Part shown: positions 4,438 through 51,477 of the stretch, piece after piece
Layout: the number at the start of each line of letters is the position of its first letter
How positions within the stretch are numbered: the stretch's first letter is position 1
Assembly (NCBI GenBank): GCA_003518105.1
Contig: DOZH01000005.1
Location: 40,513 to 104,512, forward strand
Source of the DNA: Candidatus Uhrbacteria bacterium
Lineage (GTDB): Bacteria; Patescibacteriota; Patescibacteriia; UBA9934
Direction: 5' to 3'
Length of the DNA stretch: 64,000 bases
Translations under genes and position numbers: made by a program
The notes under the pieces: generated by a model
Databases searched by the model: none
What the model saw: the letters and a program-made list of their open reading frames with translations, nothing else
What the model was told of the DNA's origin: nothing

Positions 4438-4472
4438 ACAGCCGCCCGGGAGGAGCGGCTGTTTACCTTTTA
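4438..4472. terminator. Bidirectional hairpin terminator between the methyltransferase and nfo
   Basis: ACAGCCGC-ccgggagga-GCGGCTGT followed by TTTACCTTTT. Confidence 0.55.
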
Positions 4473-4478
4473 TAACAA

Positions 4479-5333
4479 TTATTTATCACCTCTAAATTTC
4501 TTCAACAACTTCATATCCTCTTCCCTGTTCCCCGGCTCCTCTTCATCATCAAACGGCGTTTCAAGAATCAGGTCAATATGCTTTAACTTCGGGTGCTCAA
4601 CCAAATATTTAAATGCATCCGCGCCAATAAAGCCATGTCCTAAATGCTGGTGCCTATCTTTATGTGCCTCAAATTCCACCTTACTATCATTACAATGACT
4701 CGCCACTAACTTATCGAGCCCAATAATCCTATCAAAATCAGCAAAAGTTTTGTCGACGTCGGCCTTGGTCCGCAAATCATAACCACTAGCAAAAGCATGT
4801 TGCGTATCAAAACACACGCCAATCTTCTTACCCCGCTCAGCACCAGCAATAAACGCCGCAATTTCTTCGAACGAATCACCCATTACCGCCCCAGCGCCGG
4901 CACTTATTTCGATGAGTAACTGGCAACTACCCGTATACCCATCCATTATTCGGTCGAGGCCCTTAATCACCAACTCCCTCCCCTCCTCCTCACCAACTTC
5001 CTTAGCACTCCCCGGATGAAACATGATCGCCTTCGCTCCTAACTGCGAGCCTCTTTCTAATTCCTCCCGCAAAATCTTCACACTCCCAAACCGCGTTGTA
5101 TTCTTCGCACTCGCCAAATTCACAATATACGGCGCATGAATATACACGTCCTTAATCCCATTCTCTTTCATCGCATTTTTGAACATCTCAGCCTCCTCGT
5201 CCGTAATCGGCTTAGCCGCAAACGCCTGTGGGGACCTCGAAAATATCTGTATCACCTCGCACCCCAACTCCTTCCCTCTTTCTCCCGCCTTCCACAACCC
5301 TCCCGCCGCACTAACATGAGCCCCAAAGCGCAT
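4479..5333 (-). CDS. nfo: Deoxyribonuclease IV (AP endonuclease family 2)
   Basis: MRFGAHVSAAGGL...EVIQIFSRSPQ...HAPYIVNLAS...HCNDSK, typical Nfo. Confidence 0.85.
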   Translation of the reverse strand: MRFGAHVSAAGGLWKAGERGKELGCEVIQIFSRSPQAFAAKPITDEEAEMFKNAMKENGIKDVYIHAPYIVNLASAKNTTRFGSVKILREELERGSQLGAKAIMFHPGSAKEVGEEEGRELVIKGLDRIMDGYTGSCQLLIEISAGAGAVMGDSFEEIAAFIAGAERGKKIGVCFDTQHAFASGYDLRTKADVDKTFADFDRIIGLDKLVASHCNDSKVEFEAHKDRHQHLGHGFIGADAFKYLVEHPKLKHIDLILETPFDDEEEPGNREEDMKLLKKFRGDK

Positions 5334-5992: not shown

Positions 5993-6493
5993 ATGACACT
6001 CACATCCCATCAGTTCGTCGCCCACGCCCACAATCTCGCTGACCTCGGCATCGAGGCTCTTCACCCCGACGCCACCTCAGCCGTCCTCAAGTTCCTGGCC
6101 ATCCTTGAGAACAGCACCGTTCATATCATCATGGCCGACACCACCCAGCACCGCGCTCTGGCCTTGCTGCACTACTGTTCATATCGCGAGGAGATTCTGC
6201 GCACCTGGTATGCTCGGGCCCTCGCCGACCCCAATCCTCACTACCCACGCGAAATCTTTCGCTACGTTTACGTCGGGGCTGGCTGGATCTCGCCCGGAAT
6301 CAAAAACCTGGTGCATGTCCCAGCCCAGGACGTCATCCAAGGCTGGAAATCTCCCAGTCTGCAGGTCGACACCACGCCCGAGTGGCAGGCCCTGCTCACT
6401 CCTCACCTTTTGGCCAACGTGGCCGCCACCGTCGAGCCTTCCCTCACCCTCTCCCGTGCCCTCCGCGCTGCCCCTCACCCCGATGACTTCTAA
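5993..6493 (+). CDS. Hypothetical protein (GC-rich orphan)
   Basis: ORF open from 5864. GGAGTCCACCATG places the likely start at 5993. No recognisable motif. Other ORFs over this span look like GC-driven artefacts. Confidence 0.5.
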   Translation: MTLTSHQFVAHAHNLADLGIEALHPDATSAVLKFLAILENSTVHIIMADTTQHRALALLHYCSYREEILRTWYARALADPNPHYPREIFRYVYVGAGWISPGIKNLVHVPAQDVIQGWKSPSLQVDTTPEWQALLTPHLLANVAATVEPSLTLSRALRAAPHPDDF

Positions 6494-12621: not shown

Positions 12622-13794
12622 TTAATTTCTATTAAGTGATGGCGGTACAAATCCATTTTGTTCTAGAACGTAGAATATACCCCTTAGTAAATAACTATTA
12701 ATAAAACCAATTGTGTAGACTCTGCTTTTACCCGGCACTGCTATTAGCATTTTCTTATCTTTTAAGCGCTTGAGAATGCGTGACCGTTGGACGGCTGACT
12801 CCTCGCCAATTATTACGTCTAAATCAGCCGACTTAAGTAGCATTTGCTCATGTCTAACTAGAGCACTAAGAATATCAAATTCTCTCTTTGTGATCAACTG
12901 TCGCTCGGCCGAATATTTGAGTGCAGGCAATAGAATAATTTCTGTCATGTACTTCAGGTCTAACAAACGATCAATTTTCTCAATCTCATTCTTTAGACCT
13001 CCTAATACATATAAACACCAAGCCAATACCTTGTCTTTTTCGCCAGTATCAGCTAGTGCCAAATTCTTATAGTATTCATTTCTATCCATGCAGAAAATTG
13101 CGGTTGGATTCAATATTCGTCCGTTGTGAACCTTGAATCCTTGCTTGATCAACATGGCATAAGTAAACATTCTAATCAATCGTCCGTTACCATTATCAAA
13201 AGGATGGATCCAGGCCATGCGGTGGTGTGACAAGGCCGTGACCAATAAATCATTTTGTAGGCTGGTAGGAGTATTGACGAACTTGAGAAGTTCAGTGAAA
13301 TATTCAGGTACCTTAAGTTTGTCTGTTGGTTTATGTAATGATCCTTGGATACTGATATTGATTGGCCGTAATTCTCCGGGGAATCTCGACCCCTCACCTT
13401 TAGGGGGCGGAGTAAGACCTTTTACAATTATTTTGTGAATTTCAGAGACTAAAGCTCGAGTAATATCACCACCCTCAGTCACGTTATCCTCAATGAACTT
13501 AATAGCTCGTTCAATATTGAAAATCTCACGAATACCCTCTTCCTTTGTGTCTCTTGGGACTTGTTCAATAATCCTCTCAACAAATTCAGCTAGTGTAGTA
13601 TGGTTACCCTCTATTCGCGCCGATCCCAGGCTTTCCATCATCTGAAATATCCCTTTTAACTGAAAGAAGATATAGGCTGGGACTGGCCCACCTAACTTTT
13701 TAACTCGCAGTTTCTCTAGTTCAACTATCGTGCTGGCAAGTTCCGAAGCCCAGGCTGGTTCAAATATTTTTAGAGGAATCTCATTGAGAACCAT
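12622..13794 (-). CDS. Fic family protein (adenylyltransferase-type fold)
   Basis: Canonical Fic motif HPFDNGNGRLIR, in an AT-rich segment. Confidence 0.85.
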   Translation of the reverse strand: MVLNEIPLKIFEPAWASELASTIVELEKLRVKKLGGPVPAYIFFQLKGIFQMMESLGSARIEGNHTTLAEFVERIIEQVPRDTKEEGIREIFNIERAIKFIEDNVTEGGDITRALVSEIHKIIVKGLTPPPKGEGSRFPGELRPINISIQGSLHKPTDKLKVPEYFTELLKFVNTPTSLQNDLLVTALSHHRMAWIHPFDNGNGRLIRMFTYAMLIKQGFKVHNGRILNPTAIFCMDRNEYYKNLALADTGEKDKVLAWCLYVLGGLKNEIEKIDRLLDLKYMTEIILLPALKYSAERQLITKREFDILSALVRHEQMLLKSADLDVIIGEESAVQRSRILKRLKDKKMLIAVPGKSRVYTIGFINSYLLRGIFYVLEQNGFVPPSLNRN

Positions 13795-18504: not shown

Positions 18505-18561
18505 AAAAAATATGTGATTGGGGAGAGATTAAATTTTTAGAAAAACCCTGGGGGAGTTTTT

Positions 18562-19008
18562 CTATTTCGTCGACTGGGGAATAGACTCATTATAGTATAA
18601 AAGCAGAATCGCGCCAGCTACTATGAGGATATCTGACAAATTGATCGCCGACAGTCTAAAAAATATCAGGTAATCAGTCGTAAACCCATTAATGAACCTA
18701 TCAACTAAATTTCCCATCGCGCCAATCGCCACCACAACCGCCCCTGTCATTTGCATCTTGTTCGCAACTCTCTTCAACCACGCAAACCGTACCAACAGCG
18801 CAATGATAACCACCGTCAACGGTATCACCACGAACAACGGAATCATCGTATCCCCCGTAATCCCCGGGTTCTTATGCAGCGCGAGGTCGACGGGCCAGCT
18901 CAAAACTTCGCTATCCGGTTTAAAACTCGTAATTGCCAGCAACTTCAAAATCACATCGAGCATCCCGATCGCCAACGCTCCCGCAATTATTATCACCGAT
19001 TTTTTCAT
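18562..19008 (-). CDS. lspA: Lipoprotein signal peptidase (signal peptidase II)
   Basis: Four hydrophobic segments plus GNLVDR and INLSD motifs. Confidence 0.8.
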   Translation of the reverse strand: MKKSVIIIAGALAIGMLDVILKLLAITSFKPDSEVLSWPVDLALHKNPGITGDTMIPLFVVIPLTVVIIALLVRFAWLKRVANKMQMTGAVVVAIGAMGNLVDRFINGFTTDYLIFFRLSAINLSDILIVAGAILLLYYNESIPQSTK

Positions 19009-19025: not shown

Positions 19026-19100
19026 AGGACGACGTCGAACATCGTCCTTATCAATGTTTGCAGGCCTAGGACGACTCCCGATGTCGTCCTTTGCACTTTT
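19026..19100. repeat. Double-hairpin REP-like element (AGGACGAC...GTCGTCCT family), copy 1
   Basis: AGGACGACgtcgaacaTCGTCCT + TATCAATGTTTGCAGGCCT + AGGACGACtcccgatGTCGTCCT + TTGCACTTTT. Abuts the stop codon of the HD gene. Confidence 0.7.
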
Positions 19101-19726
19101 TAGATCGCAAACTCTTTATACTTTCTCCTCATCTCCTCCGCAATCATATCACCAAACGCTCTAATCGCCGGATCGACGTCGGCATATTTGAGCCCATAAT
19201 TAATTGTGAACTCCAAATGAGCTGGGAACATGTGGCCTTGGCGATATTCGAGCACTTGCAATAGCGCCTCAATCTTATCCAGCGCTTTCACTACTCTTGC
19301 TTCAAATGTCTCATTAGCCTCGCTTTCCTGCCACAGTCCATACAACCGCTCATTCTCAACCGGTGGCAGCTTGCTAAATAGCTTCTTCGCCGCCTGCTCC
19401 TCCTTCGCCAGCTTTTCGGTTTTTCGTATTTCGTTGTAAGCATGACTGTCCTCGCCAGTCCCAGCCTTCCCTAGCGGACTCTCATCGCCACAAATAATCT
19501 CCGGCGTATCATGCAACACCGCCAACTGCACAGCTCTACCAACATCAAACGGCTGAGCCAACTTATCCGCGAACATCATCACGAGCATCGATAAGCGCCA
19601 GCTGTGATCCGCCACAGACTCATACTTAATCGGTCCTGCATAATCCTTCCAGTAATATTGTCCTCGAAATCTCTCCAGCTTCTTTAATCCTTCCAGTGTC
19701 GTCGCAAAATTTAAATAAGCATCCAT
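19100..19726 (-). CDS. HD-domain phosphohydrolase (YfbR-like 5'-nucleotidase type)
   Basis: VADHSWRLS...LHDTPEIICGD HD signature. Confidence 0.7.
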   Translation of the reverse strand: MDAYLNFATTLEGLKKLERFRGQYYWKDYAGPIKYESVADHSWRLSMLVMMFADKLAQPFDVGRAVQLAVLHDTPEIICGDESPLGKAGTGEDSHAYNEIRKTEKLAKEEQAAKKLFSKLPPVENERLYGLWQESEANETFEARVVKALDKIEALLQVLEYRQGHMFPAHLEFTINYGLKYADVDPAIRAFGDMIAEEMRRKYKEFAI

Positions 19727-19804
19727 ACAGCGTCTCGATAATATCGCAAACCACCCACAAACAAAAGACCCGCGAGTTAATCACGGGTCCTTTACTGCAG
19801 AACT

Positions 19805-19917
19805 TTCACATTTGAGACTAGTTTGGGTGCGGAGCAAGCCGAGCTTTTGAGACTCACTAGAGCGTGAGTTGAAAAAGTCGGCGCAGCGACAAACCCAAAA
19901 TAGGCCAAATGAGGAAG
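19805..19917 (+). ncRNA. Candidate structured element, copy 1 of 2 (strand uncertain)
   Basis: Shares the 5' TTTCACATTTGAGACTAGTTT and 3' AAAATAGGCCAAATG ends with 47686..47797. Interior helices are conserved by compensatory changes. Confidence 0.5.
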
Positions 19918-19922
19918 TTCTG

Positions 19923-20288
19923 TTAAATCTCTTGCGTAAGCGTCTTCTTACAAGCAATACAGGAAGTAGAAGCTGGACGTGCTAGTAAACGTTGAATATC
20001 AATTTCATGTTGGCAATACTTACACTTGCCGTAAGTGCCAGCTTCGATAGCCTTTTGGGCCGAGCGAATGTCCTTTAAGCCAGCTTCAAGTTCACTCTCC
20101 AGGGACAAGTTATCGCTAAACTCGGCAACTTCAGCCGCGTTTTCATCCTCGCTTTCCCCATGATTAGGAAAGTCCGTGGCCACAGCACCATCTACGCCAC
20201 GATGTGTGATCTTATTAATCTCAGCCTCGAGCTTTCCCTGTTCATCCTGCAGGGCTTGAGTAAGCTGAGCTAAAAGTGTCTTATCCAT
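19923..20288 (-). CDS. DksA/TraR-family C4 zinc-finger protein
   Basis: C-terminal CKYCQHEIDIQRLLARPASTSCIACK after a coiled-coil N-terminus. Confidence 0.75.
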   Translation of the reverse strand: MDKTLLAQLTQALQDEQGKLEAEINKITHRGVDGAVATDFPNHGESEDENAAEVAEFSDNLSLESELEAGLKDIRSAQKAIEAGTYGKCKYCQHEIDIQRLLARPASTSCIACKKTLTQEI

Positions 20289-20888
20289 ACAAGAAAAATC
20301 AGGTATCTGTTAAGTGCTAGCCACTATAGCAAAATCTAGGAAAAAGGGAAATCAAGGCTAAAAATACTCAAATTTAGTAAAAGAAAAGAGGGAAATAAGC
20401 GAGAAAATTGTTGAGGCGCGAGGCCTAAGGAAAGATAGAAATTAATCTACGATGATATCCTGGCTCAACAGTTTGGCTTATGTCCCTCAGACGAAGGGCG
20501 TAGGATGGACACCGGCTCTGGTGCTGGGTTTCCAGGTCATATCTTTCGTTTGGGAAAGGCATCACCGGGCAACGCAGCCACAGATCGGCGTCGACAGTCA
20601 GACGCTTTGACGTTCTACTCTACCCCGATAGGGTTACCTGGCGTGCCGAACGCATTCAAGACGCGAGCCCAGTCGACCAATAGTATGAGAGTAAAGTAGT
20701 GAGGTATCCCCCGAAGCTGAATTGTGGGGGCTTCGGAGGATTTCCCCTATGTCAGCCGTACGATGCTTCGCACGGAGCTTAGAGGTTTTGTGGAAAGAAC
20801 AAGTGAAGAGTTCACATTTATATTATAGTTCCCTGAACACCTATTGTAAACAGACTATAAGCCCTGCAAAATATAGAAAAACTCTATT

Positions 20889-20960
20889 TGTGGATAACTT
20901 TCCGAACTAATTCTGTGTAGGGCTGTGGATAACTTGTGGGGATAACGGCACTTATCCCCC
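20889..20960. promoter_or_regulatory. Secondary DnaA-box cluster
   Basis: TGTGGATAA at 20889-20897 and 20924-20932. TGTGGGGATAA at 20935-20945, facing TTATCCCCC at 20952-20960. Confidence 0.5.
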
Positions 20961-20972
20961 TCGCCCACATTA

Positions 20973-27174: not shown

Positions 27175-28095
27175 ATGGCCAAACTCATCGACAAATATCT
27201 CCAACAATTTTTAGAATACTTAGAAATCGAACGTGGCCGCTCTTTGCTCACGGTTAAGAATTATTGTTTTTATTTACGCCGTTTTCTCGACTGGTCGGCC
27301 ATCAGCGAGCCGAGCGACATCACGCAGGAAGTCGTCCGCAAGTTTCGCCTCTTCCTCAACCGCGACTTAGCTGGCCGTGAAGAAGCCAACCTCCAAAAAA
27401 CCACACAAAATTACCACCTCATCGCCCTGCGCTCATTCTTGAAGTTCCTCGCCAAGCGCGACATCGCTTCCCTCTCGCCCGAAAAAATCGAACTGGCCAA
27501 ACAAGAAGGCCGCCACGTCAGCTTCCTCGAAGCGGAAGAGCTCAAGCGCATGTTACTCCTCGCCGCCCGTGACACTTCACTCGTCGGTCTCCGCGATCGG
27601 GCCATTCTCGAGCTTCTCTTCTCCTCTGGCCTCCGCGTCTCCGAACTTTCCAACCTCCTCATCGAACAGGTCAACCTCAAGCTCGACGAATTCACCATCA
27701 AAGGCAAAGGCAGCAAACACCGCGTGGTCTTCCTCTCACCTGCCGCCAAACAATGTCTCAAAATGTACTTGGACGTCCGTCAAGACGTCGCTCCCTTCAT
27801 GTTTGTGCGCCACGACCGCGCTAAAAAAGGTGGTGTCGCTGCCCTCACCCCCCGTTCCGTGCAGCGCGTAATTGACGGCTTTGCCCGCAACGCCGGCATC
27901 ACCAAACGTGTCACCCCCCACACCCTGCGCCACACCTTCGCCACGGATCTCCTCCGTAACGGTGCCGATATCCGCTCCGTTCAATCCCTCCTCGGTCACT
28001 CTTCTATCGTCACCACCCAGGTCTACACCCACATTACAGACAAGGAACTCAAACGCGTTTACACCAAATTTCATGATAAACCCGAGGTCAGTTGA
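27175..28095 (+). CDS. Tyrosine recombinase XerC/XerD family
   Basis: C-terminal catalytic region HTLRHTFATDLLRNGADIRSVQSLLGHSSIVTTQVYTH. N-terminal SAM-like core-binding domain. Confidence 0.85.
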   Translation: MAKLIDKYLQQFLEYLEIERGRSLLTVKNYCFYLRRFLDWSAISEPSDITQEVVRKFRLFLNRDLAGREEANLQKTTQNYHLIALRSFLKFLAKRDIASLSPEKIELAKQEGRHVSFLEAEELKRMLLLAARDTSLVGLRDRAILELLFSSGLRVSELSNLLIEQVNLKLDEFTIKGKGSKHRVVFLSPAAKQCLKMYLDVRQDVAPFMFVRHDRAKKGGVAALTPRSVQRVIDGFARNAGITKRVTPHTLRHTFATDLLRNGADIRSVQSLLGHSSIVTTQVYTHITDKELKRVYTKFHDKPEVS

Positions 28096-41601: not shown

Positions 41602-41730
41602 ACGCACTTCGAACGCCAGAAATATAGCCGTTTTTGTCGCAAATAGCAAACCTCCGGGCCAAAATTAATTGACTTATCACCTAACCTAAGGCATATTCTG
41701 GCAGCTCAACCCCACACCCAGGAACCTACC

Positions 41731-46607: not shown

Positions 46608-47600
46608 ATGATCATCTTTATCTACGGCGACGACGGCCCTCGTCTCAAAACAAAACTTTTGCAATTAACCACCCAATTTACCACTAAATTTGATACTACC
46701 GGCCTCAATCTAGCCTCTTTTTACAACTCTCCCCCAGCTATGGGGGAGTTGGTGGGGGCTTTAACTTACCCCGACGTGCTCCAGGCTGTCATGAGCTCAC
46801 CATTTCTCAGTGAGAAGCGCATGGTCATCGTCCACAATCTCATGGACGGCCTCAAAAAGGACGACGCTATTATGTGGGCCGATGGCCTCGCTAAAACCCC
46901 CTCGTCAACCATTCTTGTCCTCGTTGATAACCTCGACCCAACCAAAGTCGAGAAACACGAGCTCTTCAAGCGCCTTAAAGATGGTGCCGAGGTTCACACC
47001 TACGCCGAAGTTAAACGTGAAGGAGCAGCTCTTTATTCCTGGCTTATCGACGAGGCCAAAAAACAAGGTGCTCAACTCAGCTTATCAGTGGCTACAGATC
47101 TCGCCACCCGTGTTGGTGACGACGCCTGGCAGCTGCAAAACGAGTTGGCCAAAGTGGTCGCCTACGCCAACGGTGCGGCTATCACCACCACCATGCTCGA
47201 CCTACTCGTCCAAAGCTCCAGCGAGTCCAACATTTTCGCCTTCGTGGATGCTATTAGCCAACGAGACGCTAAAAACGCCCTCCGCCTGCTGGCTACTGAA
47301 CGGGCCGCTGGTTCCGTCGACTTCTACCTCTTAACCATGCTCGCTCGCCAAATTCGCATTCTCCTCCAAATCTGCGTCCTCCTCGCGGACGAGCCAGGTG
47401 CTGCCGCCGACGTCGCTAAACGCCTATCTTTACACCCCTTTGTGGCCGGCAAGGCTACCTCCCAAGCCAAGCGCTTCACCCTCCTCCAGCTCCTCAATCT
47501 CCATCAGCTCCTCGTTAAACTCGACCACGACGCCAAAACAGGCGGCCTCGACGCTGGCCTGGCTGTGGACCGACTTGTCGCCGAAATGCTAGCTATTTAG
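46608..47600 (+). CDS. holA: DNA polymerase III subunit delta
   Basis: MIIFIYGDDGPRLKTKLLQL... with the typical HolA layout. The ORF-track start at 46143 runs through the upstream gene; the ATG at 46608 is preferred. Confidence 0.75.
   Translation: MIIFIYGDDGPRLKTKLLQLTTQFTTKFDTTGLNLASFYNSPPAMGELVGALTYPDVLQAVMSSPFLSEKRMVIVHNLMDGLKKDDAIMWADGLAKTPSSTILVLVDNLDPTKVEKHELFKRLKDGAEVHTYAEVKREGAALYSWLIDEAKKQGAQLSLSVATDLATRVGDDAWQLQNELAKVVAYANGAAITTTMLDLLVQSSSESNIFAFVDAISQRDAKNALRLLATERAAGSVDFYLLTMLARQIRILLQICVLLADEPGAAADVAKRLSLHPFVAGKATSQAKRFTLLQLLNLHQLLVKLDHDAKTGGLDAGLAVDRLVAEMLAI
46728..46768 (+). repeat. In-frame mini-palindromic repeat (PPAMGE element) inside holA
   Basis: CTCTCCCCCAGCTATGGGGGAGTTGGTGGGGGCTTTAACTT, encoding SPPAMGELVGALT. 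Confidence 0.75.
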
Positions 47601-47685
47601 CCTGCAAAACGCCCCCTCTGCTTGACGATTTTCCTCCATTCCGCTACACTTCGCACAATCTTGATAACCTTATTTGTACCAGGAT

Positions 47686-47797
47686 TTTCACATTTGAGAC
47701 TAGTTTCGATGAACATCGAGCAAAGCTCCTGAGGCTTAGTTACTGCTAAGATGAAGGAGTTTGCGCTGATGTGAGTCGAAAATAGGCCAAATGGGAA
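47686..47797 (+). ncRNA. Candidate structured element, copy 2 of 2, immediately upstream of rpsT
   Basis: Same conserved ends as 19805..19917. Helices TTTCGA/TCGAAA, GCAAA(G)CTCCT/AGGAGTTTGC and CTTAG/CTAAG replace GTTTGGGT/ACCCAAA, GCCGA(G)CTTTT/AAAAAGTCGGC and ACTCAC/GTGAGT. Confidence 0.5.
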
Positions 47798-47810
47798 ATC
47801 CGTTGTCTCT

Positions 47811-48080
47811 ATGCCAAACCTACAGAATGCCATCAAAGCTCTCCGCCAAGCCAACAAGCGCGCCGAGCGTAACGCCGTCCGCAAGGGCCTTGTCGATAGC
47901 TTGAAGCGCCAATTCCGCAAAGCCTTGGAAGCTGGTAAAGCCGTCGATGCTAAGACCATCTACCAGAACTTGACCCAGGCTTTGGACAAAGCAGCCTCTA
48001 AGAATGTAATCGCTGCTAACAAAGCTTCCCGCACCAAGTCCCGCTTGGCCGCCAAGCTCAACCTAGCCCTCAAGAAATAA
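47811..48080 (+). CDS. rpsT: 30S ribosomal protein S20
   Basis: MPNLQNAIKALRQANKRAERNAVRKG...KNVIAANKASRTKSRLA. Confidence 0.9.
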   Translation: MPNLQNAIKALRQANKRAERNAVRKGLVDSLKRQFRKALEAGKAVDAKTIYQNLTQALDKAASKNVIAANKASRTKSRLAAKLNLALKK

Positions 48081-48099
48081 TTGACGCCAATAAACACAA

Positions 48100-48134
48100 A
48101 ACGTTACACCACTTCGGTGTAACGTTTTTGTTTT
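48100..48134 (+). terminator. Intrinsic terminator after rpsT
   Basis: AACGTTACACC-acttc-GGTGTAACGTT followed by TTTGTTTT. Confidence 0.7.
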
Positions 48135-51403: not shown

Positions 51404-51477
51404 ATTGACCCAAAGCTTAAAAATGACTATACTCGCCCTGTCCTCGAGCTTCTAGTATAGCACGACACATATATTCT

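Follow-up and report, generated by a model that had tools for sequence, protein, structure and literature searches.

A dispersed, strand-specific palindromic repeat, probably mobile, in a subclade of Candidatus Uhrbacteria

Known palindromic repeats and the Uhrbacteria family

The enterobacterial repetitive intergenic consensus (ERIC, also called IRU) consists of imperfect palindromes of ~127 bp whose presence or absence varies among related species. ERIC copies are reportedly intergenic, lie within transcription units and occur in both orientations, and we know of no transposase that acts on them. REPINs are said to be doublets of REP sequences that form hairpins and are mobilised by RAYT transposases, with copies that reportedly are long-lived. 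In Correia elements (NEMIS), pairing occurs only at the 26-bp terminal inverted repeats, the TA target is duplicated and promoter boxes are carried. Transcripts of Correia elements reportedly form hairpins that are cut by RNase III, and expression is said to be altered.

We analyzed a 64,000-nt stretch of a Candidatus Uhrbacteria genome (contig DOZH01000005.1, herein the window), in which two structured sequences of ~113 nt had been predicted from the letters alone, one of them as the leader of rpsT. Our analysis indicates that both probably belong to a mobile palindromic repeat that is non-autonomous and strand-specific and is dispersed in the genomes of an Uhrbacteria subclade (Table 1). The family is closest in kind to ERIC/IRU, REPINs and Correia elements; it shares no sequence with them and lacks particular defining features of each.

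With ERIC/IRU, the Uhrbacteria repeat shares a nearly equal size, an imperfect palindrome that spans the whole unit, a probable location in transcribed spacers, both orientations and a presence that varies between relatives. Unlike ERIC/IRU, it resides in a different host phylum, has an invariant asymmetric basal loop and places its 3′ end regularly at gene boundaries. The two also lack sequence similarity, since none of the complete E. coli genomes (5,426, which carry ERIC, REP and other repeats) gave a blastn match at word size 11. As in REPINs, an extragenic hairpin of ~100 nt would be the replicating unit, its ends would be read by an enzyme, its pairing is compensatory, its logic is single-stranded and strand-specific and its copies persist for long. 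However, the halves of the Uhrbacteria repeat are not themselves palindromic and have no GTAG head, the conserved motifs being GAGACTAG and ATAGGCC. No RAYT (Y1/HUH) gene was present among the gene calls around the loci that we fetched from other assemblies (given herein by L numbers). Like Correia/NEMIS, and like MITEs such as RUP and BOX, the repeat is small, non-autonomous and gene-adjacent, has terminal inverted repeats and is probably co-transcribed. In contrast to Correia/NEMIS, it pairs over its whole length, is flanked by TA on each side in no more than 12 of 28 copies and carries no convincing promoter. It differs from IS200/IS605-derived PATE in that its 5′ flanks share no motif. Over 40 kb of a single contig (L046 and L039), copies had the orientations +, −, +, and these mixed orientations argue against an IS200/IS605-style replication-strand bias. 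Because there is no ERIC homology, no REP/GTAG architecture and no TA duplication, we regard the repeat as a new family.

Searches of curated collections gave no earlier record of it. An Rfam scan that included ribosomal-protein leader families, as the original prediction had recommended, matched the element to none of them: there was no match at gathering scores across the whole window and no meaningful match to either copy up to E = 10. No homologue was found in the viral contigs and the phage and plasmid collections searched. Literature searches by organism and repeat terms and by motif strings returned nothing on the element, nor did they return any account of dispersed structured repeats in bacteria of the candidate phyla radiation.

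Fold, covariation and strand of the repeat

The window holds two similar structured copies at the places where they had been predicted. A search of the window for their end motifs gave exactly two occurrences of CACATTTGAGACTAGTTT, an 18-mer for which 0.03 chance matches are expected there, and exactly two of AAAATAGGCCAAATG; our covariance model likewise finds exactly two copies in the window. Each copy folds as RNA into a single rod, with −47.7 kcal/mol for copy 1 and −47.0 kcal/mol for copy 2 (z scores of −6.4 and −7.3, respectively), and none of 200 shuffles was equally stable. Folds computed with DNA parameters were nearly as good, at −33 and −31.7 kcal/mol. We found that ~12 extra outer base pairs close the rod (AGAACTTTCAC.ATTTG / CAAAT.GAGGAAGTTCT). 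Because these pairs belong to it, the element is longer than first noted; the structure of the ~113-nt unit was real, and its true length is 125 nt in copy 1 and ~123 nt in copy 2. For the same reason, copy 2, which does lie inside the rpsT leader as proposed, has a gap to the ATG (47811) of 8–9 nt, not 13 nt. The individual helices that had been described, namely P1, P2 with its bulged G and the apical hairpin, as well as the GAGCAA junction, are all present in the predicted folds and in an alignment of 25 copies. Open reading frames of 58, 120 and 77 aa run across repeat copies (19781–19957 and 47597–47959 on the minus strand of the window, and 4541–4774 in L052), and these are likely annotation artefacts that arise from the repeat.

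Table 1. Features of the two window copies, their neighbouring genes and orthologous sites. Coordinates are those of the window unless a locus is given.
Feature	Position	Strand	Basis and remarks
Repeat copy 1	19798..19922	+	125 nt, CAGAAC...GTTCTG; covariance model 144 bits; RNA and DNA folds; boundaries from the empty L048 site
Repeat copy 2	47680..47802	+	~123 nt, sense in the rpsT 5′ leader; covariance model 126 bits; RNA and DNA folds; absent at the same position in L039–L044
rpsT promoter-like site, TTGACG-17-TACACT	47622..47650	+	Promoter scan; upstream of copy 2; conserved in L039 and L043
rpsT (ribosomal protein S20)	47811..48080	+	Open reading frame; homologues carry PF01649
rpsT terminator	48098–48128	+	Terminator scan
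dksA/TraR-like zinc-finger gene	19923..20288	−	Open reading frame; PF01258; 100% identical protein recorded from Candidatus Uhrbacteria
Terminator-like hairpin and T-run of the dksA-like gene (GGACCCG..CGGGTC TTTTGTTTG)	19755..19793	−	Read from the sequence
Empty site, tRNA-Arg(cct) leader	51440..51476	+	Conserved promoter (TTGACC-17-TATACT) upstream; L005, L017 and L039 each have a full copy
Empty site, tRNA-Arg(tct) leader	41603..41620	−	In L026 and L039, a copy separates the tRNA from its conserved promoter
5′ half-copy, tRNA-Arg(cct) leader	L005 ~6400–6440; L017 ~620–660; L039 ~12649–12685		
Candidate deletion footprint after the LspA stop codon (TAG AAAAACTCCCCCAG joined to GGTTTTTCT)	18539..18564	−	Compared with a full antisense copy in L046 and L047; common to L048

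To find the family, species-representative genomes were scanned for the two conserved cores at a distance of 65–95 nt. Of the 26 loci with this pattern, 23 proved to be real copies, and every one of these comes from a MAG of Candidatus Uhrbacteria or Patescibacteria; 5–7 copies per MAG match the exact pattern. A covariance model built from the alignment of 25 copies revealed further copies in relatives beyond the exact-pattern matches. Between them, the scan and the model give ~30 distinct copies in Uhrbacteria MAGs related to the window, so that the covariance-model search suggested for the original pair uncovered a multi-copy family. In two Uhrbacteria with a DksA that is 54–56% identical, the model found no copy in 20 kb from each, which implies that the family is limited to a subclade. 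Among the loci, L003, L004, L012, L017, L020, L025 and L026 come from a MAG labelled "uncultured Gammaproteobacteria bacterium ERP119702_co3_211" (CAYHFQ01...). This MAG apparently has an identical stretch with L039, which has the gene order of the window and an S20 that is 90% identical. Judged by synteny and protein identity, it looks like a relative within Uhrbacteria whose Gammaproteobacteria label is wrong.

An imperfect rod results from pairing between the two halves of the ~125-nt unit along all of their length. Sequence is conserved over ~28 nt at either terminus, and the two termini form an imperfect inverted repeat, such that AGAACTTTCACATTTGAGACTAGTTTGGG and the reverse complement of the 3′ end AGAACTTCCTCATTTGGCCTATTTTGGG are ~80% alike across 28–29 nt. 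A basal internal loop is conserved in its asymmetric form (UUUG-AGA-CUA-G-UUU opposite AAA-A-UAG-GC-CAAA), and the interior is variable in sequence yet paired. The invariance of TTTGAGACTAG and TAGGCCAAA is in part a matter of ascertainment, because both served as the search pattern. For instance, in the copy at L010:1893–2022, which was found by the model only, a G-C pair has become U-A and an A.G mismatch has become G.A.

RNAalifold analysis of the 25-copy alignment yielded 45 pairs in one rod, with compensatory double changes in 29 of the 45. The paired fraction of cells was 95.8%, compared with 82% for column shuffles and 32–52% for slid partners, and 153 cells were doubly changed against 45 expected. 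No shuffle out of 500 reached any of the observed measures. The compensatory helices seen in the first two sequences thus held up and were strengthened by ~30 further copies, and structure-preserving variation among homologues is present in the family alignment. A comparison of orthologous copies across species gave 5 compensated pairs against 4 broken ones, which suggests that the pairing of persistent copies is maintained in place.

The alignment also distinguishes the two strands. Conserved G.U pairs occupy three positions, columns 12/125, 34/104 and 57/79, and outside those columns G.U outnumbers A.C by 15 to 2 (p = 0.002). This excess implies that one particular strand is the folded strand. 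Since copies in an antisense context have the same bias (G.U versus A.C of 5 to 1), the folded strand is tied to the element and not to the host transcript.

A scan of metagenomes returned a divergent subfamily in L027, L034, L035 and L037 (54–59 bits, E about 1e-12). Its members have the same termini and basal loop (GAGAACGTTCA.TATTGAGACTAGTTTGCA ... TGCAAAATAGGCCAATA.TG..CGTTTCT) and an unrelated, fully paired interior. The contigs have a GC content of 37–39%, and the named homologues of the neighbouring PotD are from Legionellales or Gammaproteobacteria; by these signs the contigs look Legionellales-like. Conserved ends and a free interior across phyla are what would be expected if the ends are read by a mobilising enzyme. 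In L027, L034, L035, L037 and L038, the flanks also pair in a conserved manner (CAGGTAG... / ...CCTGGGTAG), suggesting that the unit of this subfamily measures ~175 nt.

Gain, loss and decay of copies between close relatives

Copies of the repeat have been gained, lost and decayed between close relatives. Filled and empty versions of the same site were found at five places: the rpsT leader, the 3′ end of the dksA-like gene, two tRNA-Arg leaders and the LspA–ComM junction.

The rpsT leader is filled only in the window species. Upstream of rpsT in L039–L044 (S20 90% and 73% identical), the covariance model finds no element. In L039, whose S20 is 90% identical, an unrelated sequence of ~35 nt forms the rpsT leader and the TTGACG-17-TACACT promoter is kept, and in L043 (73%) the rpsT ATG follows the −10 box by 12 nt. 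As the promoter lies upstream of copy 2 and is kept in the element-free L039 and L043, copy 2 is probably transcribed within the rpsT leader. The empty leaders of the relatives imply that copy 2 is a lineage-specific insertion, located ~25 nt past the likely transcription start.

Copy 1 is situated, as had been described, between the stop codon of the dksA-like gene (19923–19925, minus strand), which directly abuts its 3′ end, and a terminator-like hairpin of that same gene. The terminator scan did not flag this hairpin because the loop exceeds the length that the scan allows. In L046–L048, the hairpin comes directly after the dksA-like stop codon, and in the window copy 1 intervenes. The folded plus strand of copy 1 is antisense to the dksA-like and HD genes, which are both on the minus strand. 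The empty site in L048 reads TAA GAG TAAAGGACC, compared with TAA (CAGAAC..GTTCTG) CAG TAAAGGACC in the window. L045–L047 are empty as well, so that here too only the window species is filled, and the boundaries of the inserted unit are exact. There is a possible 3-nt repeat at the insertion, CTG or TTA, which is ambiguous. All three of three same-species contigs carry copy 1; polymorphism of copy 1 within the species was thus not seen, and recent movement was not caught.

Copy 1 adjoins a small hotspot of gene turnover. The gene downstream of the dksA-like gene encodes an HD-domain protein in the window (19100–19726), a NUDIX protein in L046 and L047 and a 93-aa open reading frame in L045, and no gene lies directly downstream in L048 and L052–L054. 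Upstream of the dksA-like gene, the window has a non-coding gap of ~680 nt (20289–20972, minus strand) with GC-rich hairpins and a promoter-like TTTACA-17-TATAAT at ~20850–20815. A gap of 600–780 nt occurs at the same place in L045–L048 and L052–L054. The window gap has no Rfam match and is possibly an undescribed non-coding RNA or a long leader.

In the window, the pairs tRNA-Arg(cct)-tRNA-Ala and tRNA-Arg(tct)-tRNA-His have short leaders behind conserved promoters; the corresponding leaders of relatives are filled (Table 1). The filled tRNA-Arg(cct) leader has, in addition, a 5′ half-copy GAACTTTCAGATTTGAGGCTAGTTTCGATGAAC that lies 9–10 nt upstream of the full copy and is conserved in two species. 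Behind the LspA stop codon of the window, we found a small hairpin made of both outer-stem arms from which ~100 nt of interior is missing. Compared with the full copy in relatives, this LspA–ComM sequence of the window and L048 is a probable deletion footprint of a former copy. For the other element-linked genes, tblastn found no orthologues in the window.

The region of rpsO (S15) and an NYN nuclease gene is a recurrent insertion site, and the window is empty at these positions. S15 lies between two antisense copies in L010 (1893–2544), one copy is located between S15 and NYN in L023 (1968–2098), and another is upstream of S15 in L052 (4564–4696). Also upstream of S15 in L052 (~4440–4560) is a compact unit that consists of a TTGACC-17-TATGAT promoter-like site, ~75 nt and a clean intrinsic terminator. 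This unit is a possible small RNA gene, and the antisense repeat copy starts 2 nt past its T-run.

A small non-coding unit of ~125 nt, many dispersed copies, terminal inverted repeats and insertion polymorphism are features of a MITE. The original prediction had offered a structured MITE with TIR-like ends as a fallback, and with inverted-repeat termini, a multi-copy family and filled and empty orthologous sites, this is the reading that we favor. Upon analysis of the flanks, we found no direct repeat enriched at any offset pair as a target-site duplication, and the palindromic TA...TA flank of 12 out of 28 copies was the sole flank signal. In ~430 kb of loci searched, there was no autonomous partner, no transposase and no pair of solo ends bracketing a gene; the search for solo ends recovered only the 5′ half-copy beside the tRNA-Arg copy.

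As a mobile repeat, the element would depend on an enzyme acting in trans, which would read the invariant basal loop and the termini and move one particular strand in the form of a single-stranded hairpin. The copies sit in transcription units, either in 5′ leaders or directly behind stop codons and terminators as judged from promoter and terminator positions, and for this reason they are probably co-transcribed. Copy 2 would provide the rpsT leader with a stable hairpin of ~120 nt, and copy 1 would provide the 3′ UTR of the dksA-like mRNA with the complementary hairpin. Once transcribed, the rods would be likely substrates of RNase III.

Placement at genes and rival explanations

Among the ~30 Uhrbacteria copies, 16 of 30 are in sense orientation and lie 2–10 nt upstream of a start codon or of the 5′ end of a mature tRNA, 13 are antisense to neighbouring transcription and one is ambiguous in orientation. 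The 3′ end of the element is at most 10 nt from a boundary in ~26 of the 30. These boundaries comprise start codons, tRNA ends, the stop codons of convergent genes and the tails of terminators, and in L002, L003 and L046 the terminal nucleotides of the element form the neighbouring stop codon itself. The 5′ end faces the remaining spacer, with a median gap of ~56 nt. Behind the sense copies are the genes for S20, L21, L32, EF-G, a release factor and a pseudouridine synthase and four tRNA loci, along with the genes for RecO, FtsA, FolD and an NTP transferase. The translation apparatus accounts for 10 of the 14 distinct sense loci. Such an enrichment is a hint that the host uses the sense copies or that the element has a strong target bias.

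Most long open reading frames of the window (e.g., those at 27175, 28169, 52720 and 3482) are without a Shine-Dalgarno sequence, and many of its genes have a TATAAT-like −10 box 7–10 nt before the ATG. This pattern in the sequence suggests that leaderless or very short-leader mRNAs may predominate in this Uhrbacteria genome. Since the genome is mostly without Shine-Dalgarno sequences, their lack behind the element is not special. We considered the GGAAG in the 3′ arm as a replacement for one and rejected it, as it is missing in several copies, its spacing is too long and the genome mostly does without. A promoter borne by the element was rejected as well: the native promoters, located upstream, are kept where a site is empty, and the 3′ end lacks a consistent −10 box. 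The promoter scan found no outward-facing promoter inside the element; its sole match there is weak and inward-facing, on the minus strand of copy 1 (TTAACA-18-TATTTT).

These placements could also be read as those of a host-functional cis-acting RNA module, that is, a 5′ leader that serves as a module in front of tRNAs and highly expressed genes, with mobility as a secondary trait. Such a module might serve as a stabilising 5′ hairpin, or it might mark the transcript for processing, in which RNase III or an enzyme like it would cut the leader down to a short one. The 16 sense copies directly before start codons or tRNA ends and the share of the translation apparatus among their loci agree with a module of this kind, as do the conserved G.U pairs and internal loops and the compensatory changes by which orthologous copies differ. 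Moreover, in a Shine-Dalgarno-poor genome with many leaderless-looking genes, a long structured leader would need special handling. However, the same genes have no copy in close relatives, where the native promoters are conserved, and the 13 antisense copies keep the same strand-specific G.U pattern. Deletion footprints, as we read them, and half-copies exist, the same ends are found in an unrelated phylum, and the leaders of tRNA and ribosomal-protein genes may be merely safe or preferred insertion sites. The 3′-end-to-gene rule, the enrichment at translation and tRNA genes and the compensatory differences between orthologues may reflect either target choice or selection at the RNA level. On account of these three observations, we keep a primary host function in view as an unlikely reading.

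We find it still more doubtful that the mobile repeat has been adopted by its host as an RNA module, either cut at the base by an endonuclease or coupling expression through an RNA-binding factor at the basal loop. According to this proposal, a strand-specific structured leader would install itself directly before translation-apparatus genes and tRNAs, in a bacterium whose mRNAs would for the most part be leaderless and free of Shine-Dalgarno sequences. RNase III or the neighbouring NYN-type nuclease would then cut the base of the rod and leave short-leader mRNAs and pre-tRNAs. Alternatively, a common RNA-binding factor would read the invariant basal loop and couple the expression of the genes concerned.

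It is very improbable that each copy is a small RNA gene of ~125 nt with its own transcription, the copies being paralogues of one family. The fold is indeed stable, conserved and strand-specific, and a −10-like hexamer can be read in the flanks just upstream of some copies, such as TATAAT in L015. However, neither a consistent promoter nor a terminator at the 3′ end was found, which leaves the small RNA family, the other fallback of the original prediction, without support. In addition, copies separate a gene from its conserved promoter, or a stop codon from the terminator that belongs to it, and the positions of copies are not conserved between close species.

Lastly, the suggestion of an S20 autoregulatory leader, whose RNA would mimic the S20 binding site and repress rpsT translation, is scarcely credible: copy 2 resembles ribosomal-protein leaders in that it places structured RNA in front of a ribosomal-protein gene, within its 5′ leader and 8–9 nt before its ATG, but it is not conserved with the gene, has no Rfam leader match and has ~29 other copies at tRNAs and many other unrelated genes in both orientations, and the orthologous rpsT loci, which are without the element at S20 identities of 90% and 73% despite the conserved promoter, refute such a leader as a conserved mechanism.

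The mobile repeat, which we consider the probable identity of these sequences, has no description in the literature searched, comes from an under-studied phylum and has an unusual placement pattern. As far as we found, it is the first such element in the candidate phyla radiation, whose genomes are tiny and are usually thought to be poor in mobile DNA. The same ends in a Legionellales-like bacterium possibly reflect a transfer between groundwater bacteria that are very different, or a mobilising machinery that they share. For work with these genomes, gene callers put likely spurious open reading frames over the copies, and the repeats may break MAG assemblies and offer strain-level markers. 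For the biology of Uhrbacteria, hairpins of 120 nt in the leaders of S20, L21, L32, EF-G, release-factor and tRNA genes make the handling of structured leaders testable in an organism whose starts would be mostly of the leaderless type.
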